Shown here: positions 9,444 to 52,776 of the stretch, one piece after another
How the letters are laid out: each line of letters starts with the position of its first letter
Numbering within the stretch: the stretch's first letter is position 1
Assembly (NCBI GenBank): GCA_963674785.1
Contig: OY771555.1
Location: forward strand, 1,224,511-1,288,510
Source: Caldisericia bacterium
Lineage (GTDB): Bacteria > Caldisericota > Caldisericia > JAAYUI01
Reading direction: 5' to 3'
Length of the DNA stretch: 64,000 nt
Notes under the pieces: generated by a model
Database searches by the model: none
Seen by the model: the letters and a program-made list of their open reading frames with translations, nothing else
Told to the model about the DNA's origin: nothing
Program-made: the position numbers and the translations under genes

Positions 9444-12083
9444 ATGCGAGATATGAAGAAATTTGTAATTGCTTTTGTTTCACTGTTGCTTGTTGTTTCG
9501 ATGGTTGTTTCGTGCGGGGAGGAGAAAACTCCTGAAGAAATGGTCGAATATCTTGAGCAATGGCAGGTGGGAGGGATAGTAATCCCAACGGACGATTACC
9601 AGCTTTTTACAAAACTATCCATTTTGTCACAGAAGACTGAGGAAGTTTTTAAAGCTGAAATCACAAAAAAGCCTGATGGAATAGAAGTTGCCAAAAAGGA
9701 AAACATCACTTTTAACAAACACTACTACGATTTCTATGTTAAAGCAAAAGAGGATCAGGTGGGTATCTATCCATTTGAAATTACTCTTTCGTCCGATAAT
9801 AATACTCATGTGATAAAAGGAGAGATCGAGATTCTTGCCCAAACCGAGAAGTTAGATAATCTATTTGGTGGGGCAAACAGGTCAAACGTGCTAACTGGGT
9901 TTGATTTTGACGGCAAGGATGTTGTGAAAAACCACTCAATTACTGATGATCTTATAACCGGACCAGTATCAGATGGAAATAGTATTTTTATAGGAACAAA
10001 AGATGGAGATTTGATAAAACTTGACTCTGATTTAAATGAGTTTTCTAATATAAATATAATCGATGCTTCAATCGATAAAATTCAAATCTGTGGTGATTAT
10101 ATTTTTATTGCTGATGTTAATGGTGTTGCTTATATTTTTGAGAAATCTGATACCGATAATTCATCAATGAAACCTATCTCAAAGCTTGATCTGGGAAGTA
10201 GACTATCTGTCACTCCTTCTGTCGTTTCTGAAAAAAATCTTATTGTTGGGACAAAGGGCGGAGCAATAATTTCATTGGCATATCCAAAGCTTAAAAAGAA
10301 TTGGGACTATAAGACTGGTGGAGAAGTGATTTCGCTTGCGGCATCATCAGGAGTTTCAAAAAAAGGTGACCGAAAAGGGACAATTGTTGCTGCATGTGAT
10401 GATAGGAATGTATATTTTGTTGGTCTTGATGGAAAACTTGTAACTATGGAGTCAAATGTAAATGATTTTGTGAAACATGTTTCAATAAAAGACGGAAAGG
10501 TCGTTTTAATTTCCGAGACCAATAAAATCTTTTTGAGAAATCTCAGTGACCTATTAATCTACGACATGTTTACTGAAAAAAACATAGATAGTGGGGCAGC
10601 TTTTAATGGTGATTATGTAGTGACTGTCAGTAGAAATAACTTGAATGTTCATGGTATCGATGATGGTTACTTACAGTTGGAGATGCAACTTGATGCAGAG
10701 GTGGTTTACGATCCAATTATTTTGGATGATAAAGTTCTCTTGTTTTTAGAAGATGGTACTTTTAGAGTGATGGATTTCATGGATGGCACTGAACACTGTA
10801 GACACAATTTCTCAGGAAAACCTTTAGGATGGCCAATAATAATCGACGAAAAACTCGTTTTAATGAATGAAGATGGTTACATTTCAACATGGGGAGAAAG
10901 AGAAAGGGTTGAATTGAGCGGAGCCGTTGATATTTCAAGTGTGAAGTATTTTGGTGGAAGAGGAGACCTCAGGCATTCGGGGTCTTTTGATTTTTCTGTT
11001 CCAGAGAATCCTTCTGTCATTCTTGAAATTCCGGGTAATTTTGCTCCACCGATTATTTCTAATAAATACATTTTTTTGTATGATATGGATCGTGAAGAGT
11101 TCAGTTTGAGGTCACAAGAAGATGGTGGAATAGTTTGGTATATCCCTGAAAAAGCAGCACACGGGTTGTTCACTGGTGCGGGACTAAATGCTGGTCCTCA
11201 CGAATCTCCGATGTTTATTACGCAAGATGGATTATTTATTGCAACCGAATCAGGTCTTTGGCTTGTAGATGAGAATACTGGAGAAATAATACAAAAAACT
11301 AACTACATCGGTATCCCTCAGATTGATGAGCAGGTGATTGTTTTGACATCTGAAGCTGGTGTTGTGTGCCTTGACAGGAATATGAATCATTTATGGACAA
11401 AGAGTTTAATTGGAGTCACATCTGGTCAACTGTGTATTGATGACGACGAGATATATGTTTTTGATAGGAACGGTGATGATTCAAAAATATACGTTTTTGA
11501 AAAGTTGAGTGGAAATACCCTTTTTGAAGAAACCGATTCGATATTACAATATGGGACAAAATTAGTTCTCTCAAGCAAGATGGCCGCAACAGGAACAATA
11601 GCAGGGATGTGGCTTATGGGTAGAGAACCATATATGGTTTTTGGAGCGGTAAATGGTACAAATAGGGCTTTGAACCCATTTGTTATTGATGGTGTTATTG
11701 GCTCAATGCAAGAGGGAATCGGATTGATAAAAAAGATTGATTCTGTAAGAGATTTTGCGGAGATAAATTACTTTGATATTAGAGGGATTAAAGATGAAGA
11801 TTCAGTCTTCTACAACTTTTTTACAGGCAACGATTTTTTGACGTTTGATAGATTGGTATCACTTACTGCAAAAGAGGAGCTAAAGGCAAATACTGATGAA
11901 TCTATAAAACCTCCACCTGAGGTGTATGTAACAATTAGAAAAAAAATAAACGGAGAGATTCTTTCAGAAATTTTTGTTAATAGCACAGGAGTTGCGGATT
12001 ATGCGATGACAGCAACTGATAATTTAATTGCTGTCTGTCAGCAGGGACCATCACCAAAACTCCTTCTGATTGGCGAGAAGTAG
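9444..12083 (+). CDS. Lipoprotein with PQQ/BamB-like beta-propeller repeats
   Basis: Lipobox 'LLVVSMVVSC' after an N-terminal basic region. Recurrent ~40-aa repeats with G-x-[IV]-x-x-[LI]-D/ '...DG..' periodicity. 879 aa. Confidence 0.65.
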   Translation: MRDMKKFVIAFVSLLLVVSMVVSCGEEKTPEEMVEYLEQWQVGGIVIPTDDYQLFTKLSILSQKTEEVFKAEITKKPDGIEVAKKENITFNKHYYDFYVKAKEDQVGIYPFEITLSSDNNTHVIKGEIEILAQTEKLDNLFGGANRSNVLTGFDFDGKDVVKNHSITDDLITGPVSDGNSIFIGTKDGDLIKLDSDLNEFSNINIIDASIDKIQICGDYIFIADVNGVAYIFEKSDTDNSSMKPISKLDLGSRLSVTPSVVSEKNLIVGTKGGAIISLAYPKLKKNWDYKTGGEVISLAASSGVSKKGDRKGTIVAACDDRNVYFVGLDGKLVTMESNVNDFVKHVSIKDGKVVLISETNKIFLRNLSDLLIYDMFTEKNIDSGAAFNGDYVVTVSRNNLNVHGIDDGYLQLEMQLDAEVVYDPIILDDKVLLFLEDGTFRVMDFMDGTEHCRHNFSGKPLGWPIIIDEKLVLMNEDGYISTWGERERVELSGAVDISSVKYFGGRGDLRHSGSFDFSVPENPSVILEIPGNFAPPIISNKYIFLYDMDREEFSLRSQEDGGIVWYIPEKAAHGLFTGAGLNAGPHESPMFITQDGLFIATESGLWLVDENTGEIIQKTNYIGIPQIDEQVIVLTSEAGVVCLDRNMNHLWTKSLIGVTSGQLCIDDDEIYVFDRNGDDSKIYVFEKLSGNTLFEETDSILQYGTKLVLSSKMAATGTIAGMWLMGREPYMVFGAVNGTNRALNPFVIDGVIGSMQEGIGLIKKIDSVRDFAEINYFDIRGIKDEDSVFYNFFTGNDFLTFDRLVSLTAKEELKANTDESIKPPPEVYVTIRKKINGEILSEIFVNSTGVADYAMTATDNLIAVCQQGPSPKLLLIGEK

Positions 12084-12152: not shown

Positions 12153-15100
12153 TTATGGGCAACAGTCTCCCCAACCCTTATAAACCCAGCTGATGATGTA
12201 TATCCCTGATGATTCTTTTGTGTATGTCACCTGGATACAGCTTCCAGGAGGAAGTGTTTTGAATGAGTACAATCCAGATTCATCGCGAAGTCCTGGTTGT
12301 ACCATAAGGCTCATACCCTTCATCTCATATTCATCACATGCTCTGTAATCAAGTGTCAGAATTGCGCCTTCACCGTCAATATTTGCATCATTTGTAAACC
12401 CATTAAATTCAATATTTGCCCAGTCATAATTATCAACACAACACTCGGTATATTTCATTGATTGCCACGCAACAACTCGATTTCTGTTTGTGAAGAATCT
12501 TACGCAATGCTTGTATTTTGCAGTGTATTCTTCAAATGTGAACTGCCCATGAATATCTTTCATTTTGGGGTCAATAAAGAATTGAGTATTATAATCATCG
12601 CATAGCTTGATTGTTACAAAAACATCTCCGTTTTTGTCTTTTTCGCTAACATTTTCTATCAGTCCGTCATATATTACTGAGCAACAGTCTTTGTCCTGGT
12701 CAAGTGCTGTCCATGAGATAATTTCTGTTCCTTTAACTTTCAGAATGACACATTTTCCTTCCCCATACTTTTGGAAGGTGTATTTTCTTGTTGTGTCCAT
12801 AAGTGTTTTTTTTGCATTGTAACCAAGTCTTACATTTTCGTTAAGGTCCGGGCACTCACTAACCCAAACTGTTAGACTATCTCCATCATCATCAATTCCT
12901 CCAATTTTTCCAACAACGATTTTAGGTGGAGTGATTTTTGTGCAACAATCACCATCTGTAGAAACAAGTGTCCATGAGTCAACACTCAATACATTGCTTC
13001 CACCGCTAATACTAACACAGAAGGTTCCGCATACACCTTTTTTTATATCCTTGATGTGCATCTTTCCAGTTGTATCCATTAAGTCTGGATCAGCGGCCAA
13101 CATTACACCCATCCCAGATGCTGGATTCAAACATTCTTTTATAAAAATCATATCTGAGTAACCTTCGCCACCAGGATTTCTGTTTGTTACTGTCCCAAAA
13201 ATCTTTTTGCCTTCACAGACCTTGCTTTCTGGTGTTGGGTCAGGCTGCTCTTGGTTACCGCAGCAATCTTTTACAAGAGGAAGTGCAATCCATGAAACAA
13301 TCCTTTTGTTTACAACACAAATCTTCGCACACCCTTTATAGTCAAAGATTTTGTAATTTCCAGATTTATCAATTCTGATATCATCTGATCCCGTATACTC
13401 ATCAAAAACTGAAAACTCTCCACCACAAATCTTGATTGAAACCTTCCAAGGAAGGTCGCTTGTTCCTGTACGTTCTGCAGAGAATATTTCAACTGGATAC
13501 CAAGTGCAATCTTCTGGTGGTGGCTGGTCGCCTTTGCAACAATTTCCGCCATTTCTGATCATGGTTGGATAGATTTCCTTGTAGGGAAGTGCATCTTCAT
13601 AGATGGGGTTTTCTTTCGCTTCACCGCAGACGATCCAGCATTGCCCCTCTCTTATCTCAGCACACTGATCAGCTGAAAGGTAAACCCTCCATGCAGTATT
13701 ATTCTTGTCGTACCCGTCAAAATTAGGTTCATCATCGTCACAATTTACGACTTCAACTGAAACGCAGAAACAATTCGAATCATTACCACAGCAGTCTTCC
13801 AAAAATGCCTCTGTCACTCTCATTGATTTTCCAACAGGTGTTCCAGTTGTTTCGTCTTGAACAACAACAATCCCACAAACCTTCCAGCATTCGCCAATCT
13901 GCATGTCAGATGCTAGATTTCTGTCAACTACAAGACCCCAAGTTGTATCAGCTGTATCACCGGTCATTATGAATAGGTTATCATTGAGTGTAACTTTTGT
14001 TTTTATGGTCACACAAACACATTCTGCTTCTGGTTCTCCGCAGCAGTCTTCTTTTGTAGCCTCTTCGACCTTCATGCCAAAATTTATACCAGGGGTTGGT
14101 GTTCCGATTTCTCCAGTGTCTTCCTGCTCAACGATTTCACCGCAGACTTTCCAACACTCTCCATCATTCATTGAGTATGCAATGTCTCTTGGGATAAGCA
14201 GACCCAAAACTGTGCCATCTTCCTTTGTTCCGGTTGCGACAAAGAAGTCGTCATTAATTCTGGTTTTTCCATCGATGATTACACAAACACACTCAACCAC
14301 AGGTGGGTTATTATCGCAGCAGGTTCCTTCGCTAATCTGTGTGACTTCAAATCCTGGGAATCCGTGTTTTCCTTCAACGAGGTTTCCCTCAACATTGATG
14401 CAACTTCCTTCCATAAACTCAGCTTGAAGTGTTGGTGCTTTGAATAGAACCCATTTGACTCCCCATTCATCAGTTACGTATGCTTCACCTCTTCCAACCT
14501 CTTCAACATGAACACAAAGTCCGCACGAACCACCACCATCATTATTGTCGTCTGGTTCACATGGGCATTCTACGCCTCGAATGCTTGTAACCCTGAAAAC
14601 ACTTACAGTTTGTACATTTGTGCCTGGGAGTGGGGTTGTGATTGGGTCTTCTGTTTCTGAGCTTTGTGGATATCCGCAGATTTCATAACATTTGTTCACT
14701 TCAAGTTTGTAAGCAAGTGATGTCGAATTCCCCTCAAACATCAGATTCCAAGTTTTTCCATTTCCATCAACAGCTGTTGCTGTTGGGATTTCAGAAGTTG
14801 TGTTCAGAGATGCAATTGTCATGCATGTGCATTCGCGGCATTCTGGGTCATCAAAATAAAGAACAACGGTGCTTGTGTCTGAAAACCACTTGATGTCGTT
14901 TGGACCAGTAGCACCAAGATTTTCTGCAACAAATCTCATTGGAAGAAGCGTTCTTCCGTTTACAACATACCCAACAACAGATGGGTTATTGGGGTCAATC
15001 TGAACAGGCTGACCGTTTACAGCAGCAGTTGGTTTTCCAATCCAGATTTCAATGACATTGTGGTCGGTTGTTGTGATGATGATTTTTTTCTCGGCTGCGA

Positions 15101-15638
15101 CATAATCAACAGTTGCACCCATTTCCTCAGCAACATATCTGATGAGAAGGAACATTCTTGACTGATTGATTACTGGTGCTGCCTCCATTGGCCCCTTTTC
15201 GCCATCGTCAACCCAATACATGGTGTTTCCAACCTGATACTTGAGGATTCTTACACAATCATCTTCTTCCTCGTCTGGTGGGCAGGTTGGGGTCGCACAG
15301 TCCTCAATCGACTGAGCAAACTCATTTGCACCACTATCAACAGCGCGAACATAGTAGCAATAGAGCTGATCGTTCTGGATGTTGATTGTGTCTCTGAAAT
15401 ATGTTTCCTCAATTGGGAAATCAGTAAGAGGAGTTGCATACTCCATGCCAACTCCTGGTCCCCTGTAAATCCAGTAGTGGGCAGCATTTGGGACAGCATC
15501 CCAAACCAAGTCGTTATAACCACAACCAGGTGTGACTGTCAGATTAAATCCATCCTGAGCAACAGCTGGTGTGTTGGGTGGAATAATGCTCAAAATCATG
15601 AGCACAGCAATAGCAAACGTTATAAGTCTAGCCTTCAT
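12153..15638 (-). CDS. Large secreted Cys-rich repeat protein; N-terminal FnIII-like plus tandem CAO-N-like module, then repeated 'ECWKVCG...DCCG...C[VF]CV' units
   Basis: Signal peptide 'MKARLITFAIAVLMILSIIPPNTPAVA'. 'VNGRTLLPMRFVAENLGATG' CAO-N signature. At least three 'G[EQ]CW[KI]VCG' units. Many 'DCCG/DCCT/DCCS/ECCV/GDCCP' motifs. Confidence 0.75.
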   Translation of the reverse strand: MKARLITFAIAVLMILSIIPPNTPAVAQDGFNLTVTPGCGYNDLVWDAVPNAAHYWIYRGPGVGMEYATPLTDFPIEETYFRDTINIQNDQLYCYYVRAVDSGANEFAQSIEDCATPTCPPDEEEDDCVRILKYQVGNTMYWVDDGEKGPMEAAPVINQSRMFLLIRYVAEEMGATVDYVAAEKKIIITTTDHNVIEIWIGKPTAAVNGQPVQIDPNNPSVVGYVVNGRTLLPMRFVAENLGATGPNDIKWFSDTSTVVLYFDDPECRECTCMTIASLNTTSEIPTATAVDGNGKTWNLMFEGNSTSLAYKLEVNKCYEICGYPQSSETEDPITTPLPGTNVQTVSVFRVTSIRGVECPCEPDDNNDGGGSCGLCVHVEEVGRGEAYVTDEWGVKWVLFKAPTLQAEFMEGSCINVEGNLVEGKHGFPGFEVTQISEGTCCDNNPPVVECVCVIIDGKTRINDDFFVATGTKEDGTVLGLLIPRDIAYSMNDGECWKVCGEIVEQEDTGEIGTPTPGINFGMKVEEATKEDCCGEPEAECVCVTIKTKVTLNDNLFIMTGDTADTTWGLVVDRNLASDMQIGECWKVCGIVVVQDETTGTPVGKSMRVTEAFLEDCCGNDSNCFCVSVEVVNCDDDEPNFDGYDKNNTAWRVYLSADQCAEIREGQCWIVCGEAKENPIYEDALPYKEIYPTMIRNGGNCCKGDQPPPEDCTWYPVEIFSAERTGTSDLPWKVSIKICGGEFSVFDEYTGSDDIRIDKSGNYKIFDYKGCAKICVVNKRIVSWIALPLVKDCCGNQEQPDPTPESKVCEGKKIFGTVTNRNPGGEGYSDMIFIKECLNPASGMGVMLAADPDLMDTTGKMHIKDIKKGVCGTFCVSISGGSNVLSVDSWTLVSTDGDCCTKITPPKIVVGKIGGIDDDGDSLTVWVSECPDLNENVRLGYNAKKTLMDTTRKYTFQKYGEGKCVILKVKGTEIISWTALDQDKDCCSVIYDGLIENVSEKDKNGDVFVTIKLCDDYNTQFFIDPKMKDIHGQFTFEEYTAKYKHCVRFFTNRNRVVAWQSMKYTECCVDNYDWANIEFNGFTNDANIDGEGAILTLDYRACDEYEMKGMSLMVQPGLRDESGLYSFKTLPPGSCIQVTYTKESSGIYIISWVYKGWGDCCP

Positions 15639-15807: not shown

Positions 15808-16299
15808 ATGGAAGAGATAATTTTCAAACCTGTTGGATATGCAGAAACCCCTTGGAAGACTCGTGAAGGAACTCCAATCAGTCCACGTGCAGCAAAGGGA
15901 ACTCGCGGAATCATCAAGCTAAAACCTGAATTTGAAGAGTGCCTTCATGATGTTGATGGATTCTCACACGTGCGTGTGATTTTCAACTTTCATCTTTCAG
16001 ATAGCTACAAATGCAAGGTTGTGCCTTTCATGGACACAGTTGAACGTGGTGTTTTTGCAACCCACGCACCAAGACGTCCAAATCAGATTGGTGCATCTGT
16101 TTTGAAGGTGGTATCTGTCGAGGGTTGCAATCTCACAGTTGAGGATGTCGACCTGCTAGATGGAACCCCTATTCTGGACATCAAACCCTACTTTGCCTCA
16201 TTTGAACAAGGCGAGGAAAAGGTGGAGTTTCGATATGGTTGGCTTGAGAGGTTGGAGAAAAAGTCAGAGAGTAAGAAAGCGGATGAGAGGTTTAGTTAG
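15808..16299 (+). CDS. TsaA/YaeB-like (TrmO family) SAM-dependent tRNA methyltransferase
   Basis: UPF0066 hallmark 'RPNQIG...V.L.......V.GVDLLDGTPILDIKPY'. Size of 163 aa is typical for the family. Confidence 0.75.
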   Translation: MEEIIFKPVGYAETPWKTREGTPISPRAAKGTRGIIKLKPEFEECLHDVDGFSHVRVIFNFHLSDSYKCKVVPFMDTVERGVFATHAPRRPNQIGASVLKVVSVEGCNLTVEDVDLLDGTPILDIKPYFASFEQGEEKVEFRYGWLERLEKKSESKKADERFS

Positions 16300-16304
16300 T
16301 CAGA

Positions 16305-17414
16305 TTACTCATATTCAATAGTTTCCGCTATTTCATCAATGAACTCAGGTTTTATATATTTCATTATGTCTTTGATTTTCTCGATACCATTGAGTAATGA
16401 TTCATATGATATATAACTGCATATATCTGGTAGTGGTGGATCAAGATGGGAAAAGGTAGGTCTAATAATCTGATTAAAAACCTTTTCTCTTTTTTCAATT
16501 GGGGCAACAATGTAAAGATTTATGTTGATATTTGGTTGAAGACTTATTAGGTCAGACATTCTTAGTAAGCCAGAATATATAGATGTTGTGTGTTCGATTT
16601 CAAATGCAGAAATAATCGATTTTCCCTTTAGCCACAATACATCTATTAGCTCAATAGTTTTTTTCGTACTTTCGTGAAAGTTTATCGGTAATTCGTCAAG
16701 AAGTCCTGGAAGATTTGAAATAATACCATTTTTACTTTCCCTATTTCTATCGTTTTTGGGTACCCAAGTTTTTAATCCCAGATCATATCCTAATTTAGAT
16801 AAAGCAAATTGAATATCAGTATGTGATAACAAGTCGTTAGTGAGTTTAATGTCATTGATGTCTTCATCAACTGGAATTGAAATTATCTTACCACTTGCAG
16901 TCTCATCAAGTTTTGGTGTATTCTTATTCGTGAGCCACTTTTTATCGATTTCCTTTTTTATTGGATTTTCCTTGGCATTTTTAATAGCTGATAGCACTAA
17001 TTCCCCATCTGCTGTTTTCCACTTCATTGGAGATGATCTAACAAAAGATGTCCAGTAATGTTTTGGTTTATCTTCTTTGTTGAAAAATGATAGCTCCTTA
17101 ATTTCTTTGATAGGGACTCCATATTCAAAATCAATTTCGTCGATTATCTTTACCTTCATTCTTGATGGGAAAGGATCTGCAGAAAAAATCTTTTGCTTGT
17201 CATCTTCGAATGGTTCTGAGACAACCTCCAGAACTCCAACAAATCTAGATATCCCGATTATATAACAGAGCAAATAATCTCCTGGTTTGATTTTTTGAAC
17301 AATATTCCACCTAGATTTTCTGAATCCGGATACTTCTCCCCCAGCTTCTTTAAACTCAGTCCAACTTTTGATCGAGAAAAGGTCTAACCAGTATGTTCTT
17401 TTTTTGTTTCCCAT
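16305..17414 (-). CDS. EVE (PUA-like) domain protein with an uncharacterised ~230-aa C-terminal domain
   Basis: N-terminus 'RTYWLDLFSIKSWTEFKEAGGEVSGFRKSRWNIVQKIKPGDYLLCYIIGISRFVGVLEVVSEPFED' matches the EVE-domain pattern (YW...W...G...GF...RW...PGD.ll.Y......GV.EV). C-terminus contains 'IDVLWL...AFEIEHT'. Confidence 0.6.
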   Translation of the reverse strand: MGNKKRTYWLDLFSIKSWTEFKEAGGEVSGFRKSRWNIVQKIKPGDYLLCYIIGISRFVGVLEVVSEPFEDDKQKIFSADPFPSRMKVKIIDEIDFEYGVPIKEIKELSFFNKEDKPKHYWTSFVRSSPMKWKTADGELVLSAIKNAKENPIKKEIDKKWLTNKNTPKLDETASGKIISIPVDEDINDIKLTNDLLSHTDIQFALSKLGYDLGLKTWVPKNDRNRESKNGIISNLPGLLDELPINFHESTKKTIELIDVLWLKGKSIISAFEIEHTTSIYSGLLRMSDLISLQPNININLYIVAPIEKREKVFNQIIRPTFSHLDPPLPDICSYISYESLLNGIEKIKDIMKYIKPEFIDEIAETIEYE

Positions 17415-17450
17415 ATTACAAATGGTATTTTCAATATATGTAATGTCAAA

Positions 17451-24450: not shown

Positions 24451-24526
24451 GGCGGGGTAGCTCAGTGGTTAGAGCACACGGCTCATACCCGTGGCGTCGT
24501 GGGTTCGAATCCCACCCCCGCCACCA
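24451..24526 (+). tRNA. tRNA-Met (CAT), CCA encoded
   Basis: Cloverleaf read by eye: acceptor GGCGGGG/CCCCGCC, D-arm GCTCAGTGGTTAGAGC, anticodon stem CACGG/CCGTG with loop CTCATAC, T-arm GTGGG-TTCGAAT-CCCAC, discriminator A, then CCA. G1:C72 suggests an elongator. Confidence 0.85.
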
Positions 24527-25161: not shown

Positions 25162-25237
25162 TGGTGCCAAGAGACGGACTTGAACCGCCGACACGAGGAT
25201 TTTCAGTCCACTGCTCTACCAACTGAGCTATCTTGGC
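25162..25237 (-). tRNA. tRNA-Phe (GAA), CCA encoded
   Basis: Reverse complement gives GCCAAGA-TA-GCTCAGTTGGTAGAGC-A-GTGGA-CTGAAAA-TCCTC-GTGTC-GGCGG-TTCAAGT-CCGTC-TCTTGGC-A-CCA. One U-U mismatch in the anticodon stem (28:42). Confidence 0.75.
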
Positions 25238-25324: not shown

Positions 25325-27262
25325 CTATTCTCCTATCCATCCTTCGGGTCGATATAGATTGGGATAAAATATATCGATGCTTCTTTTTTCTCCGTTCCAT
25401 TTAACTTCTGAATCGAAGGCTTCAGATACAAATCTCAAAGGAACAAGAGTCCTTCCGTCTTTTATTGTTGCAGGTGGTTCGATTTCAACTTCGTTATCAT
25501 CTATGGACGCAGTACTTTTTCCTATTGGTATTCTGATTGTCTTCCTACCTTTTTTAAAAATAGCTGTTTTTGTCTCGGCTTCATAGCTTACATCAGCATT
25601 AAGTGCCTCCCCTAAAAATCTAAACGGCACAACAGTTCTTCCGGATATTATAGTCGGTTCGACATCCAGACTCGTTGATTCACCGTTTACGGTGGCTGAC
25701 TTTGAACCAATTGTCATGGAAATCCAGATCGGTGATGGAAGTGGATTTATACTGACTTTTCTAGGAACACCTTCTCCAGATTTGTATATTGGAACGACTG
25801 AATAGCTGAATTCTGATTCAGAAAAAATACCCTCATCTTTAAAGTCTGTTTCAGTTGATGATAACTCAATATATTCAAAATCATCGTAAATTTTGCCACC
25901 GTATTGCTCAGTTTTCCTGATAACGTATTTCAACAGTTTCTCATGGTTATATGTTGGGGGATTCCATTTGAGATAGATTCCATTGATTTCAGGTGTAGCG
26001 ATAAGGCTTCTAACGAATTTCGTCTGGGTGCTTGATTTAGGAACAATAACATTTACTGGGACTTTGCCGATAAAGATTCCACCAATGTCTGTCAGCATAA
26101 CGTTTGTTTGATAGGTTCCTGCAATTAGGTTGTCAGCAATTTTAACCTCAATTTCGATCAACCCACCTACTCCAATTGAGATATCATTTTCAGACAAGTC
26201 GATCCAATCAGCATCACAACTTAACAATCCTTCAAAAACGATGTTTCCGTCATTTTTTATCTTCAGTTTTTTTGTCTCACCAAATGGGTATAGTCTTGAA
26301 CCAAAGTCTAAGGTCTTGGGGTCAAAGTGAATAATTGCCTTATCTAGTTTTTCTTTTGGTTTTCCGGTAACGATATTTGAAATTTCACCTTCAGAACCAT
26401 TTTCGCAGATAACTGTTATATAATATTTGTAGGTATTATTATTCATCGCATCAGGGTCAATGAATTCTACTTCAGTTGGAATCAAAGGTTCAGGATTTAT
26501 CTTTATAAATTCTTCATCATTTTCTGTTCTATAAACGTTTATCCCCAGTATCTTCTCTTCAATTGGTTTCCAGGAAAGCTTTACCATGTTGTCCAAGTCG
26601 TATGACACCAGGTGAGGTGGAGCGATATTGCATCTTTCAAGGATTTCTTCCCCCGTCAATGAATACACAAGACCAAACTCTGTTCTGTCTTCGGTTTCTG
26701 GAACCTCGGGGCACATTGTGTGTACAAAAAATCTTATTCCCTCAGGGTTGTTTAAGTCTTCGAGTTTCACAGAAAGCTCTAGAATGTCACCATCAGAAAA
26801 AAGCTCAATATCTGCAATTTTTTCATCTTCTTCGTCTTCTTTTAATTCAATCAGCTCTCCGAATGATTCTGCCTTGGAAGTAAGAATACTTATAAGATGA
26901 TCTTCTCCACCGTAGTTGTCTGCAGTTTTTTTTATCCCGGTTTTTGCATCAAGATCCGAATCAATTACAATGTGTATCAGTCCGAAATCTTCTGGGTTTA
27001 GTAAATTGTGAATAACAAGGGTTTTAAAATAGAGTTTTTCATCATCGTGAGCACAAAAAACCTTTATGATGTCTAGACAAGCTTCGTCCATTCCATCATC
27101 CACAATCTCTACGTATTCTATGTTTTCTTTCGCTTGAGCAATGTTATTTGCAGAGATTCTGCTGCCAACTGATGCAAGAAGAATCATACCTGCCAAAAAA
27201 ATCGAAAGTATTTTGTTTAGTCTGTTCATTTTTTCCTCCAGAACTAAGTATATTACAGACAC
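25325..27262 (-). CDS. Secreted surface protein: FnIII-like domains plus C-terminal tandem CAO-N-like module
   Basis: Signal peptide 'ILSIFLAGMILLASVGS'. 'LSWKPIEEKILGINVYRTEND' FnIII-like. C-terminal 'ISGRTVVPFRFLGEAL' and 'KDGRTLVPLRFVSEAF'. Confidence 0.75.
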   Translation of the reverse strand: MSVIYLVLEEKMNRLNKILSIFLAGMILLASVGSRISANNIAQAKENIEYVEIVDDGMDEACLDIIKVFCAHDDEKLYFKTLVIHNLLNPEDFGLIHIVIDSDLDAKTGIKKTADNYGGEDHLISILTSKAESFGELIELKEDEEDEKIADIELFSDGDILELSVKLEDLNNPEGIRFFVHTMCPEVPETEDRTEFGLVYSLTGEEILERCNIAPPHLVSYDLDNMVKLSWKPIEEKILGINVYRTENDEEFIKINPEPLIPTEVEFIDPDAMNNNTYKYYITVICENGSEGEISNIVTGKPKEKLDKAIIHFDPKTLDFGSRLYPFGETKKLKIKNDGNIVFEGLLSCDADWIDLSENDISIGVGGLIEIEVKIADNLIAGTYQTNVMLTDIGGIFIGKVPVNVIVPKSSTQTKFVRSLIATPEINGIYLKWNPPTYNHEKLLKYVIRKTEQYGGKIYDDFEYIELSSTETDFKDEGIFSESEFSYSVVPIYKSGEGVPRKVSINPLPSPIWISMTIGSKSATVNGESTSLDVEPTIISGRTVVPFRFLGEALNADVSYEAETKTAIFKKGRKTIRIPIGKSTASIDDNEVEIEPPATIKDGRTLVPLRFVSEAFDSEVKWNGEKRSIDIFYPNLYRPEGWIGE

Positions 27263-48798: not shown

Positions 48799-51700
48799 TT
48801 ATGGTGAATGTGTAAGAATGATCTCTTTCGTCTCCGCAATCCACTCAACTTCACAACCAAGACTTTCAGCTAGAAATCTCATTGGTACCATTGTTCGACC
48901 GTCGATTATGGTTGGAACAACTTCTGGATTGTTAGGGTCAATTTGAGTTTCAACCCCATCAATTCTAGCAGTTGGTTTTCCAATCCAAAGCTCAATGGTT
49001 TTATCACCTAGTGTACAGATAACCTTTCTTTCTGTTCCATCCCAGGAAACGTTTCCGCCTAGTGGCTCCGTTACATATCTTGCAGGAAGCAGAGTTCTTC
49101 CACCAATTACCTGCGGGACAACGTCCATTTTTTGTGCACTTTCATCAATATAGTATGTATCTGATCCAAGCTGATATTTGACGCTTATTGTGGTTGGTTC
49201 TTCCGTTATAATATCATCTTCGTTCTTGCCACCATTTGAAGGTGGTGGGGCTGGTTTGTCTCTGTAGGTTTTGTAACAGAAAAGATCTTTTCCAACTGTT
49301 GTGTATATTGCTCCATCTGCAATGGCAATTTTATTTGCAGCGAGATTTGTTTCGATTATCTCTGGTTTTTCTCCGTGTATATCAATTATCTGAAGCATGC
49401 TTCCTTTGGAGAGGAATACATAACCTCCATGAACTGCAAACCCATTTCCGAGGTCGTATTCATCTCTGACTCTCCATTTCAGTTCACTAGTGTTTGCATC
49501 TACTGCAAATATCTGATTGCTTGAAAGGATTATGAGGTCACCTTTATAATAGTGCAGGAAATCGTCTGGGACAGTTGTGTTTTTTTCCATCCTGTAGTGC
49601 CATTTGAGTTCACCGGAAACAGCTTTATAGCAGTACATCCTTCGCCCCTTGGCTCTTGCAAAAACCTTTTCATCATAAACTATGGGTTGGCCGAACGAGA
49701 TATTCTCCGGAGTGATCCACATTAACTCTCCAGTATAGAGCGACAAGCAAAGTATTCTGTTGTCTTTATCAAGTGTGTAAATCATTCCATTTTGAGAAAC
49801 CGGTTGGATTTCGGGATTAACATCATCTCTTCTCCAAAGTACGTCACCAGTAATTGGGTCTATGCAATGGAGTCTGTTGATTGCAAGCATTGTAGATACA
49901 TATTTTGAAACAAATAGAACCCTATTTTTTGCAACAAATGGTGATGTTATGAATTTTGGATGATAGTGGTAACCAAATTTCCAGGTTTCTGAGCCGTCTT
50001 TTCTTGAAATTGAGTGGAACATCCCGTCATTGCCGCCTGTATAGACAGCATTATTTGAAAGAGCAAGTTCGCTCAGTTCTGTACCTTCTATTTCGCTGCT
50101 ATATTTGACTTCTCCATTTTCACTGTCGATTGCAAGCAACATACTTTTGTCTAATCGTGTTATTTTTGATGTGATATATGCAGTGCCATTTGCAACAACT
50201 GGTTGGGTGGGGACAAATGAGTTTTCAAGTTTCCAGTAGAGTTCTAGATTTGAAATATCAATTTCGCAATCTGATTCCTCTCGAAGATAATCTTCTTTTA
50301 TGAATCCCCTGGCCATATACCAACCACAAGGATCATTGTCCTCAAATATCTCTTCCTCCGGTAGTTCTGATGGCGGGTTTGGATCGGTTGGTGGAAGTGG
50401 CTCTGGGTCAGGGTCAGGAACAGGATCAAATATCCAATCATCTTCTGATCTTGGTGAAAGAGCATAGCAGTAAAGACAGTTTTCTCCCTGGATATAAAAA
50501 ACCTTACCGTCAATTACACTGTAATACTTGTCGTCATCAATTAACATCCTCGTTGCTGGTTCATGAACAAGGAACATCCAAAGCGTTTTTCCAGTTTCCG
50601 GTTCAACTGCGATGACATAACTTTTCTCACCTTTTGTGCCTGTAAAATAGTAAGTGTCACCAGATAGTTGTTTGAATCTATAACCTTTACGGATGTTAAA
50701 TTTACCCTTCTCGATCCTCCATCTTTCTTCCTTTGTTTCCAAATCAATCCCAACAATATCAACAAATTCTGAGTTCTCTTGAAACTCCTCAAAGATAAGT
50801 GTGTTGTTGTATCTTGCCAGAGAATCCACGTACCCCTTTGAATCAAAACTCCATAATAGATCTCCAGTGTATCTATTTACACAATTGATAATATCAATTT
50901 TATGTCCCTTGGATGCTACAAGAAGTTTGTTGTCCCAAATTGTTGGATTTCCTGAAACATTATGTGAAAGAGAATCAAATCTCCATATTGGTTTTCCGGT
51001 AAGCTTATCAGTGCAATTGAGCTCAGTACTTACCCAGTACAGGTAGTCTCCTCCATATGCTCCTAGAAAGTTGGGGTAATCAAATGGATAATCAAGTTTT
51101 GTACTCCATCTGACGTTGCCATCAGTCGAGTTTAGGCAAAAAAGTTCACCATTACAGTTACCGAGGTAGACTCCACCATCATATTCTTGAATGTGAACAG
51201 GACAGTTGGGTGTTCTGTATCCATGGACCTGGTCTTTGCTCATCCAATCTCTTGTTTGAGTTCTTACATCATACTTCCAAATTGTTTGATAGGAATTGTG
51301 ATCACCAAGAGCAGCACAGTAAAGCTTTCCTCTATTTGAATAGTATTGATATCCATATGTGTCTTCAAGATCAAGCCCTATGTAGACTACTTTTTCCCAG
51401 AGTTCTTTCCCAGTTTTTTTATCTAAGTAGTTAAGAAAAACGTTTGCATGCCTATTCTGTGGGTCTGGAACTTGTTTATATTCAACAAAGACATTGCCGT
51501 AATATGTTGCTACTGCCTTATAGTTGCATCTCCTCCAGACAAGGTTGATATTGCTTCCGTGCATTGTTATTTCATCACCCTCCATTGGGGGATCAGGTTC
51601 TGGCACAGGCTCTTTCCCTGGTTTTGCCTTGGCTGAAAGACAATAAATTTCTCCATCGAAACTATTAACAAAGATTTTTCCGTATCCGATAGATGGTGTG

Positions 51701-52776
51701 GATCGGAATGTTTTCTCGAGATTCTTCTCGAGCAAAATATTTCCTTTGTTTGCTAGATCTAGTACGAATAGCTTGCCCTTATCATTAATAACTATTATTT
51801 TTGTTCCGACTATCACAGGAGAATTGCTTACTCCATCTACTTCCAGATTTTTCTCCCAAATCCTTATGCCATCTTTTTTTCTTATGCAATGGATACTCCC
51901 GTCAGTTGCTGCTGCGATAACAAGAGCATCTGTAACTGCAGCTGAGGTATCAAAGCTGTCATCAAATCGTTTAAACCAGTTGACATATTCCCCATTGCTG
52001 CTACTGATGCAGGCTATAGACCCATCATCAAAAGTGAAATATAGATATTTATCTGAATAGCTTGGTGCTGTTGCAATCTGGTTGCTGAAACGCCTGCTCC
52101 AAATAACAGTACCATTGTCCTTATCAAGACAGTATACTTGTTTATTGCTATCAGAAAAAACTATCCCTGTATCTGTTTCACAAGGAGATGTAACAATCAT
52201 TTCTTCAGCAACTCTTGACCATATCATGGAACCATCAGAAAGATCAAGACAAGCAATGACAGCCAACTCAGTGGCTATATAGATTTTCTCATCGATTATA
52301 ATTGGTGAGGAGGAGACTGGTCCTTTCATTTTCTTAGTCCAGATGATTCCTCCAGTTTCGTTATCGAGACAAAAAACTTTTCCATCCTCAGAATACGTTG
52401 GAACAATAATCTTGCTTTCATTTGTGCATGGTGTTGCGACGATTTCTGCTTCAAGATTTTTTCTCCATACCATTGTGCTGGATGAAATATCAAATCTGTT
52501 GACCATGCCTGAATTACTCGTCGTATAGATTGAGTCAAATGTTACAAGTGGTGAAGTTGAAAAGCCTGACTCAATTTTCCTATTCCAGAAGATGCCAAAA
52601 TCTGTGAAATCAATATCACATGAGTCTTTGATAAATTGAGTTCTTGCGTTGTTCCCGCCCCAGCAAAACCAGTTACAATCACTGGATGCATCAGCATTTT
52701 CAGTGTGTATCCCTGGTAAGATCATTGTAGATATCAATAAGATTGCCAAAAGGATTCTTTTCATTTTTGCCTCCAT
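48799..52776 (-). CDS. Giant (1325 aa) secreted multi-propeller PQQ-repeat protein with C-terminal tandem CAO-N-like module
   Basis: Signal peptide 'MKRILLAILLISTMILPGIHT'. Multiple 'xxG.ViW' beta-propeller blades. Pro-rich linkers ('PEPDPPMEGD', 'DPVPDPDPEPLPPTDPNPP'). C-terminal ~95 aa nearly identical to 46780-48354. Confidence 0.8.
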   Translation of the reverse strand: MEAKMKRILLAILLISTMILPGIHTENADASSDCNWFCWGGNNARTQFIKDSCDIDFTDFGIFWNRKIESGFSTSPLVTFDSIYTTSNSGMVNRFDISSSTMVWRKNLEAEIVATPCTNESKIIVPTYSEDGKVFCLDNETGGIIWTKKMKGPVSSSPIIIDEKIYIATELAVIACLDLSDGSMIWSRVAEEMIVTSPCETDTGIVFSDSNKQVYCLDKDNGTVIWSRRFSNQIATAPSYSDKYLYFTFDDGSIACISSSNGEYVNWFKRFDDSFDTSAAVTDALVIAAATDGSIHCIRKKDGIRIWEKNLEVDGVSNSPVIVGTKIIVINDKGKLFVLDLANKGNILLEKNLEKTFRSTPSIGYGKIFVNSFDGEIYCLSAKAKPGKEPVPEPDPPMEGDEITMHGSNINLVWRRCNYKAVATYYGNVFVEYKQVPDPQNRHANVFLNYLDKKTGKELWEKVVYIGLDLEDTYGYQYYSNRGKLYCAALGDHNSYQTIWKYDVRTQTRDWMSKDQVHGYRTPNCPVHIQEYDGGVYLGNCNGELFCLNSTDGNVRWSTKLDYPFDYPNFLGAYGGDYLYWVSTELNCTDKLTGKPIWRFDSLSHNVSGNPTIWDNKLLVASKGHKIDIINCVNRYTGDLLWSFDSKGYVDSLARYNNTLIFEEFQENSEFVDIVGIDLETKEERWRIEKGKFNIRKGYRFKQLSGDTYYFTGTKGEKSYVIAVEPETGKTLWMFLVHEPATRMLIDDDKYYSVIDGKVFYIQGENCLYCYALSPRSEDDWIFDPVPDPDPEPLPPTDPNPPSELPEEEIFEDNDPCGWYMARGFIKEDYLREESDCEIDISNLELYWKLENSFVPTQPVVANGTAYITSKITRLDKSMLLAIDSENGEVKYSSEIEGTELSELALSNNAVYTGGNDGMFHSISRKDGSETWKFGYHYHPKFITSPFVAKNRVLFVSKYVSTMLAINRLHCIDPITGDVLWRRDDVNPEIQPVSQNGMIYTLDKDNRILCLSLYTGELMWITPENISFGQPIVYDEKVFARAKGRRMYCYKAVSGELKWHYRMEKNTTVPDDFLHYYKGDLIILSSNQIFAVDANTSELKWRVRDEYDLGNGFAVHGGYVFLSKGSMLQIIDIHGEKPEIIETNLAANKIAIADGAIYTTVGKDLFCYKTYRDKPAPPPSNGGKNEDDIITEEPTTISVKYQLGSDTYYIDESAQKMDVVPQVIGGRTLLPARYVTEPLGGNVSWDGTERKVICTLGDKTIELWIGKPTARIDGVETQIDPNNPEVVPTIIDGRTMVPMRFLAESLGCEVEWIAETKEIILTHSP

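Follow-up and report, generated by a model that had tools for sequence, protein, structure and literature searches.

An EVE reader joined to an NmeDI-type PD-(D/E)XK domain: a predicted stand-alone, modification-dependent DNA endonuclease

What is the function of an EVE domain that begins a longer protein and is encoded among housekeeping genes? The question is raised by one gene in a 64,000-nucleotide stretch of a Caldisericia bacterium genome (contig OY771555.1, positions 1,224,511 to 1,288,510), hereafter the window. A preliminary description, made from the sequence alone, had read its product as an EVE domain fused to an uncharacterised C-terminal domain and as a possible type IV restriction-like protein. 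Here we find that a single open reading frame (ORF) encodes an EVE reader and an NmeDI-type PD-(D/E)XK nuclease domain (NmeDI_C), with a helix and a flexible linker between them, and that it has no conserved partner gene. The EVE-NmeDI_C protein is probably a single-polypeptide, stand-alone, modification-dependent DNA endonuclease, either type IV or type IIM-like. This gives a concrete and testable function to a gene whose existing annotations go no further than "EVE domain-containing protein", "predicted RNA-binding protein" or "hypothetical protein".

Domain architecture and predicted catalytic core

The ORF was present as described, with both quoted peptides in its translation and with the TrmO/TsaA gene convergent to it, and its full-length homologs share 43-67% identity with the 369-amino-acid (aa) product. 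The proposed EVE/PUA-like fold of the N-terminus was borne out by sequence and by structure. Pfam EVE (PF01878) matched residues 8-112 (E=3.1e-8) at 34.2 bits, above the gathering score of 23, and the same family was found on most of the top 120 full-length homologs and on 10 of 150 nuclease-superfamily representatives. By sequence, the nearest proteins of solved structure were archaeal EVE proteins of the UPF0310 type, namely MJECL36 (profile E=8e-10) and PH1033. Structure was predicted with AlphaFold2 from an alignment of 31 sequences; the model reached a mean predicted local distance difference test score (pLDDT) of 84, and the greater part of its EVE domain scored 94-98. Fold comparison of this model identified a PUA-like pseudobarrel nearest to solved EVE structures, and an independent Foldseek search was concordant.

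Ten residues of the EVE domain (W9, W18, E20, F21, F31, R32, F82, R85, W121 and R126) were invariant among the 31 homologs. A point of reference is VcaM4I, an enzyme whose EVE domain flips 5-methylcytosine (5mC) and 5-hydroxymethylcytosine (5hmC), whose specificity for these bases has been demonstrated, and whose pocket contains P24, W82 and Y130 (PMC7897488). The structural match to VcaM4I aligned 120 residues, approximately one EVE domain. By position, with no superposition of coordinates, the invariant aromatics W9, W18, F21, F31, F82 and W121 roughly parallel the elements of that pocket, suggesting that a base-binding pocket like that of VcaM4I may be preserved.

For the C-terminal half, searches of PDB sequences with either the single sequence or a profile returned EVE proteins only and nothing for the nuclease, and fold comparison was therefore needed. 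The Pfam/NCBIfam copy searched, which predates PF27126, likewise gave no match to this domain. However, a precomputed Pfam annotation, PF27126 (NmeDI_C), is attached to the identical database protein and to its homologs, and the PADLOC model PDLC03534 ('REase_II') matched residues 176-363 (E=2e-20), which align with profile positions 159-346 of 351. Fold comparison of the AlphaFold2 model revealed the restriction-endonuclease-like alpha-beta-beta-beta-alpha-beta core and a resemblance to BspD6I, NgoMIV, NucS and FokI. The predicted secondary structure follows the canonical order of this core: helix 198-211, strand 215-217, strands 259-263 and 266-273, helix 279-292 and strand 299-304. No Pfam match to HNH was obtained in the protein, and PHROGs gave no match to it. 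The linker of ~45 aa that separates the two domains is the length-variable part of the 31-sequence alignment, and its pLDDT falls below 50 at residues 178-193.

The C-terminus is thus assigned to the PD-(D/E)XK nucleases, to which the preliminary description had loosely likened it because of a D...ExE arrangement. Those three residues proved to be D258, E272 and E274, with 99-100% conservation in the superfamily: D258 and E272 occur in 134 of 134 representatives and E274 in 132. Every one of the 134 also carries R285 and D288, on the helix that follows the core strands, together with G282 and F321, and R318 is conserved in 99%. In the AlphaFold2 secondary structure D258 directly precedes strand 259-263 and E272 lies where strand 266-273 ends. 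At its third position the motif has E, not K, a Glu-for-Lys substitution also present in BamHI. At the level of sequence, the predicted core, comprising D258/E272/E274 with R285 and D288, is intact and superfamily-invariant.

Distribution, neighbours and modularity of the nuclease domain

The preliminary description had named phylogenetic distribution and gene neighbourhood as points on which its reading could be checked. The full-length protein has 4358 database relatives, of which the top 120 are all full-length at ~50% identity. A scan of one genome per species found the EVE-NmeDI_C protein in at least 581 species (43-51% identity), spanning bacteria (Acidobacteriota, Chloroflexota, Planctomycetota, Bacteroidota, Actinomycetota, Verrucomicrobiota and Omnitrophota) and archaea (Methanobacterium, Methanothrix, Nitrososphaera and Aenigmatarchaeota). 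The distribution is patchy, covering ~0.3% of species genomes.

Neighbours were surveyed at 80 loci, with up to four ORFs on each side. The 559 neighbouring ORFs formed 499 sequence clusters, the largest of which spans five loci, and no neighbour family was conserved in this sample, the most frequent Pfam family reaching 3 of 150 immediate and 4 of 140 second neighbours. DNA-methylase domains were found on ~8 of 290 near neighbours, in mixed families (Eco57I/N6_Mtase, N6_N4 and one C5) and at inconsistent positions, and across ~77 loci no consistent cognate methyltransferase was detected. Other neighbour domains were scattered and included transposases, integrases, PIN, Phd, nucleotidyltransferase parts of toxin-antitoxin systems, HEPN and AbiJ. 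This context fits the type IV reading. Neither of the two outcomes that the preliminary description had said would overturn it, an N-terminus of another fold or a non-enzymatic C-terminal domain in conserved housekeeping synteny, was observed. Thus a modification-reader domain is coupled to a nuclease with no cognate methyltransferase, two of the features by which type IV enzymes are recognized, and from these we infer that modified DNA would be cleaved selectively.

The closest relative, at locus L001 (protein P0002), is 67% identical and has the same gene order as the window. Divergence of the EVE-NmeDI_C gene between the two loci lies within the range of its neighbours (44-87%). In the window its G+C content (GC, 0.330) and its GC at third codon positions (GC3, 0.278) are the minimum of a neighbourhood with GC of 0.37 to 0.45, and at L001 the gene again has the lowest GC (0.353). 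Composition and distribution together argue for horizontal acquisition, and the data fit one old acquisition followed by vertical descent in the lineage of the window and L001.

A homolog in a Rhodothermales metagenome-assembled genome (OZ244956.1, ~1163577-1180707; loci L002/L006) lies in a region resembling an integrative and conjugative element (ICE), with a type IV secretion system coupling protein, a DUF87/TrwB ATPase, a recombinase and a reverse transcriptase. A C5 DNA methylase is divergently oriented there, a rare case of a predicted modification-dependent nuclease travelling with a cytosine methylase.

To place the nuclease module itself, residues 190-369 were searched against 1.8 billion representative proteins, yielding 1599 clusters. 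The module was C-terminal in every case, behind N-termini of widely differing length. Among the top 150 representatives the recognizable N-terminal domains were Mrr_N (10), EVE (10), TPR (3) and HARE-HTH (2), and many had no Pfam match. These observations suggest that NmeDI_C is a portable cleavage cassette joined to different readers of DNA or of its modifications (EVE, Mrr_N, HARE-HTH and N-termini lacking a Pfam match). As Mrr_N, EVE and HARE-HTH are readers of this kind, the sister architectures support modification-dependent reading.

Some relatives of the module are plasmid-borne. Proteins of ~420 aa carry NmeDI_C behind a ~250-aa N-terminus at L083 (NZ_CP084269.1, 3239-4498), L084 (NZ_CP074103.1, 3200-4507) and L085 (NZ_CP104383.1, 3248-4513), and also on NC_007971.2 and NC_006466.1. 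Their hosts are heavy-metal-resistance megaplasmids (Cupriavidus metallidurans CH34, Ralstonia, Caballeronia, Paraburkholderia) and Streptomyces plasmids. No Pfam or NCBIfam domain was found in these N-termini, which may be reader domains of a new type. Many of the plasmid proteins bear the label 'type II restriction endonuclease'. At the three loci inspected (L083, L084 and L085) no gene annotated as a DNA methyltransferase adjoins the nuclease gene; at L084 a generic 'methyltransferase domain-containing protein' is encoded three genes downstream. Such labels are probably wrong for NmeDI_C proteins that have no methylase nearby. The C-terminal nuclease domain was also matched on 65 Enterococcus and 10 Listeria plasmids.

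Relation to known enzymes and competing explanations

The sole biochemically characterized relative of the nuclease half is R.NmeDI from Neisseria meningitidis, to which a large cross-domain family is now tied. R.NmeDI is a 351-aa type II enzyme that cuts 12/7 nucleotides away on both sides of RCCGGY; it acts as a tetramer requiring two sites, and nmeDIR overlaps the gene of its cognate C5 methylase (Kwiatek and Piekarowicz 2007, PMC2095814). The two proteins have homologous C-terminal nuclease domains (PF27126/PDLC03534) and likely share the general plan of a recognition domain with a cleavage module that acts at a distance. They differ in that the RCCGGY-recognizing N-terminal half of NmeDI, corresponding to the unmatched profile positions 1-158, is replaced by an EVE domain, and in that no C5 methylase is linked or overlapping, the neighbours in the window being TrmO and a 555-aa protein. 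The exchange of the recognition half for EVE, together with the absence of a linked methylase, predicts that the trigger is a modified base rather than an unmodified sequence. The protein thus stands outside the NmeDI type II restriction-modification system, while sharing its nuclease domain and probably its cutting mode.

The protein also differs from the EVE-HNH enzymes VcaM4I and TspA15I (PMC7897488, PMC6765204), as its nuclease is of the PD-(D/E)XK type (NmeDI_C) and not HNH, and its EVE domain, of the archaeal UPF0310 (PH1033/MJECL36) type, is only ~12% identical to that of VcaM4I. In domain architecture and predicted role it is identical to the EVE-PD(D/E)XK fusions that Bell, Wolf and Koonin (2020) listed as predicted type IV enzymes (section 9 and Fig. 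7 legend; PMC7641849), and it therefore belongs to a widespread class already catalogued as predicted. In that article no member of the class is characterized and NmeDI is not mentioned in the text (PMC7641849); the present analysis adds the assignment of the nuclease half to NmeDI_C and evidence from structure, conservation and neighbourhood. Lutz et al. (2019), whose tests were of EVE-HNH enzymes, found YenY4I as the sole fusion of a PUA-superfamily domain to PD-(D/E)XK, and NmeDI is absent from their text. A 2025 review gives EVE-HNH and EVE-McrB as the only characterized EVE restriction enzymes, and full-text literature searches found no experimental work on the EVE-NmeDI_C architecture. 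A preprint on the 'END nuclease' was considered as a description of this family and rejected, as END enzymes comprise a PLD nuclease and an inactive EndoIII domain.

A similar combination, a base-flipping reader of the PUA superfamily with a PD-(D/E)XK nuclease whose cut lies a set distance away from the modified cytosine, is generally known from the type IIM enzymes MspJI, FspEI and LpnPI and from AbaSI/PvuRts1I (reviewed in PMC12707154). Their reader is however SRA and not EVE, their PD-(D/E)XK subfamily is unrelated, and none of them was a sequence match or a top structural match here. With the type IIS cleavage domains of FokI and BspD6I the nuclease has the fold alone in common (9-13% identity), and its motif is D...ExE as opposed to D...(D/E)xK.

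By analogy with these systems, the EVE domain would flip a modified base out of duplex DNA into the conserved aromatic pocket, as in VcaM4I. The base sensed would most likely be 5mC or 5hmC on the same precedent, and N6-methyladenine (6mA) is also possible because YTH domains are the next-closest structures. Base binding would tether a nuclease module that itself has little sequence specificity, and this module would cut both strands some roughly constant distance away from the base, probably after a dimer or tetramer has assembled between two bound sites as for R.NmeDI. An NmeDI-like cleavage at a distance is probable on this comparison. Host DNA lacking the modification would be spared and modified phage or plasmid DNA cleaved, making the most likely role that of a stand-alone defence enzyme against foreign modified DNA. 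If so, members of the family might be used to map DNA modifications, and the gene would be one more single-gene defence pressing phages to alter their DNA modifications. A further proposal, which we regard as rather doubtful, is that the family (>4000 sequences, at least 581 species) forms a functionally distinct class in which the UPF0310/YTH-like pocket reads not 5mC/5hmC but some other base, such as 6mA or one that is hypermodified, and the module cuts on both sides to excise a fragment of fixed length. Were this true, epigenomic mapping would gain a new reagent on a par with MspJI or AbaSI.

Several observations weigh against a modification-dependent DNA endonuclease in defence. The gene is placed amid housekeeping genes in the window, outside any defence island, and its conservation is unusually high for a defence gene, archaeal and bacterial copies sharing ~50% identity. 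The full EVE fusion was absent from the phages and plasmids of the collections searched, including a tblastn search against phages, and a minority of homologs do lie near DNA methylases, such as the Rhodothermales copy, which has a C5 methylase two genes away. The motif has E in place of K at its third position, for which BamHI provides a precedent, and the site is predicted from sequence and secondary structure. Finally, YTH readers of N6-methyladenosine (m6A) in RNA were the second-best structural matches of the EVE domain, both EVE and YTH domains read modified RNA too, and whether the family acts on DNA or RNA, which modification it senses and where it cuts are inferences.

The last of these points raises the possibility of an RNA-directed nuclease, in which EVE reads a modified RNA base (YTH/m6A-like, or a tRNA or rRNA modification) and the PD-(D/E)XK domain cleaves RNA as a toxin, an abortive-infection effector or a factor in RNA turnover. 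We consider this unlikely. NmeDI, the only characterized relative of the nuclease domain, is a restriction enzyme of double-stranded DNA (PMC2095814), the structural neighbours of the domain are DNA restriction enzymes, and in sister architectures the N-terminal domain is Mrr_N or HARE-HTH, both readers of DNA. As for the 'RNA-binding' label, it is an older annotation given generically to EVE/PUA domains. Adjacency to TrmO was seen only in the window and in its relative L001; because it is specific to this lineage, the objection that the gene might have RNA-modification synteny does not apply, and a functional link with TrmO was rejected.

That NmeDI itself is of type II and is paired with a cognate C5 methylase (PMC2095814) invites a different explanation, a conventional type II or IIS-like enzyme blocked by modification, whose EVE-like domain binds a specific sequence and whose protective methyltransferase is encoded elsewhere in the genome. 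PADLOC and PGAP (the Prokaryotic Genome Annotation Pipeline) label relatives 'type II restriction endonuclease', and a few homologs lie near DNA methylases. Yet these methylases amount to the ~8 of 290 near neighbours described above, with differing families and inconsistent positions, and none was found among the large ORFs of the 64-kb window. The NmeDI profile matched through its C-terminal half only (159-346), indicating that the recognition domain has been replaced, while invariant aromatics typical of a base-flipping pocket are retained. Moreover, horizontal spread of a sequence-specific enzyme without its methylase would be lethal, and this explanation appears very unlikely. A housekeeping nuclease of DNA repair or genome maintenance, NucS- or Vsr-like, whose EVE pocket senses damaged or non-canonical bases, is more improbable still. 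The distribution across species genomes is too patchy and lacks conserved synteny, the GC is atypically low, and some copies are accompanied by transposases, integrases, toxin-antitoxin genes or the ICE-like region. Patchiness, low GC and mobile-gene associations are together the signature of a mobile defence gene and not of a core repair function, consistent with the modification-dependent endonuclease favoured here.

Local setting of the gene

The coordinates of the predicted features and of other genes discussed here are given in Table 1.

Table 1. Features of the EVE-NmeDI_C gene and of its surroundings (positions in the window)
Feature	Position	Strand	Remarks
Complete coding sequence, EVE-NmeDI_C fusion protein	16305..17414	-	369 aa plus stop codon 16305..16307; from ORF list and full-length homologs
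EVE (PUA-like) modified-base reader domain	17019..17396	-	residues ~7-132
Inter-domain helix and flexible, variable linker	16830..17018	-	helix residues 134-149; linker ~150-195 with conserved G-x-VTIP motif
NmeDI_C PD-(D/E)XK nuclease domain	16320..16829	-	residues ~196-365
Predicted catalytic core D258-X13-E272-X-E274 (IDVLWL...AFEIE)	16593..16643	-	BamHI-like D...ExE variant of the PD-(D/E)XK motif
Promoter-like match TTGACA-16-TACCAT	17422..17449	-	10/12 consensus, in the 36-bp spacer 17415..17450 before the start codon; weak evidence
TrmO/TsaA gene	15808..16299	+	convergent with the EVE-NmeDI_C gene, 5-bp gap
Large secreted protein	9444..12083		
Large secreted protein	12153..15638		
Large secreted protein	25325..27262		
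Large secreted protein	48799..52776		
tRNA-Met(CAT)	24451..24526	+	
tRNA-Phe(GAA)	25162..25237	-	

On its upstream side the EVE-NmeDI_C gene is separated by 36 bp from a gene on the same strand for a 555-aa protein with no Pfam match, beyond which lie genes for a FolC-like Mur ligase and then phosphoenolpyruvate carboxykinase. On the far side of TrmO are genes for Cu_amine_oxidN1 and PQQ-propeller surface proteins. The promoter-like match in the spacer ends ~7 nucleotides short of the ATG, no Shine-Dalgarno-like purine run precedes the ATG within the spacer, and promoter-like matches in the region overall showed no excess over shuffles. Judging from these letters, the gene may be transcribed from a promoter of its own into an mRNA that is leaderless or nearly so.

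A defence-island setting was considered for the window and rejected, as the surrounding genes are housekeeping genes and none of the 35 other large ORFs (150 aa or longer) matched a restriction enzyme or methylase in PADLOC. One ORF of this size matched the PADLOC models SspA (4.7e-66) and DndA (1.1e-64). Because other Dnd/Ssp components gave no match, its product is probably a housekeeping cysteine desulfurase (IscS/NifS type) rather than a component of a phosphorothioation system.

The tRNA-Met and tRNA-Phe genes lie ~7 kb from the EVE-NmeDI_C gene, with no integrase or repeat evidence connecting them with its acquisition. The window also encodes several very large secreted proteins with Cu_amine_oxidN1 and PQQ-type beta-propellers, of which a 1161-aa member is cysteine-rich and internally repetitive in appearance. 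Between the window and L001 these secreted proteins are 44-47% identical, compared with 75-87% for the metabolic neighbours, indicating that they diverge fast.
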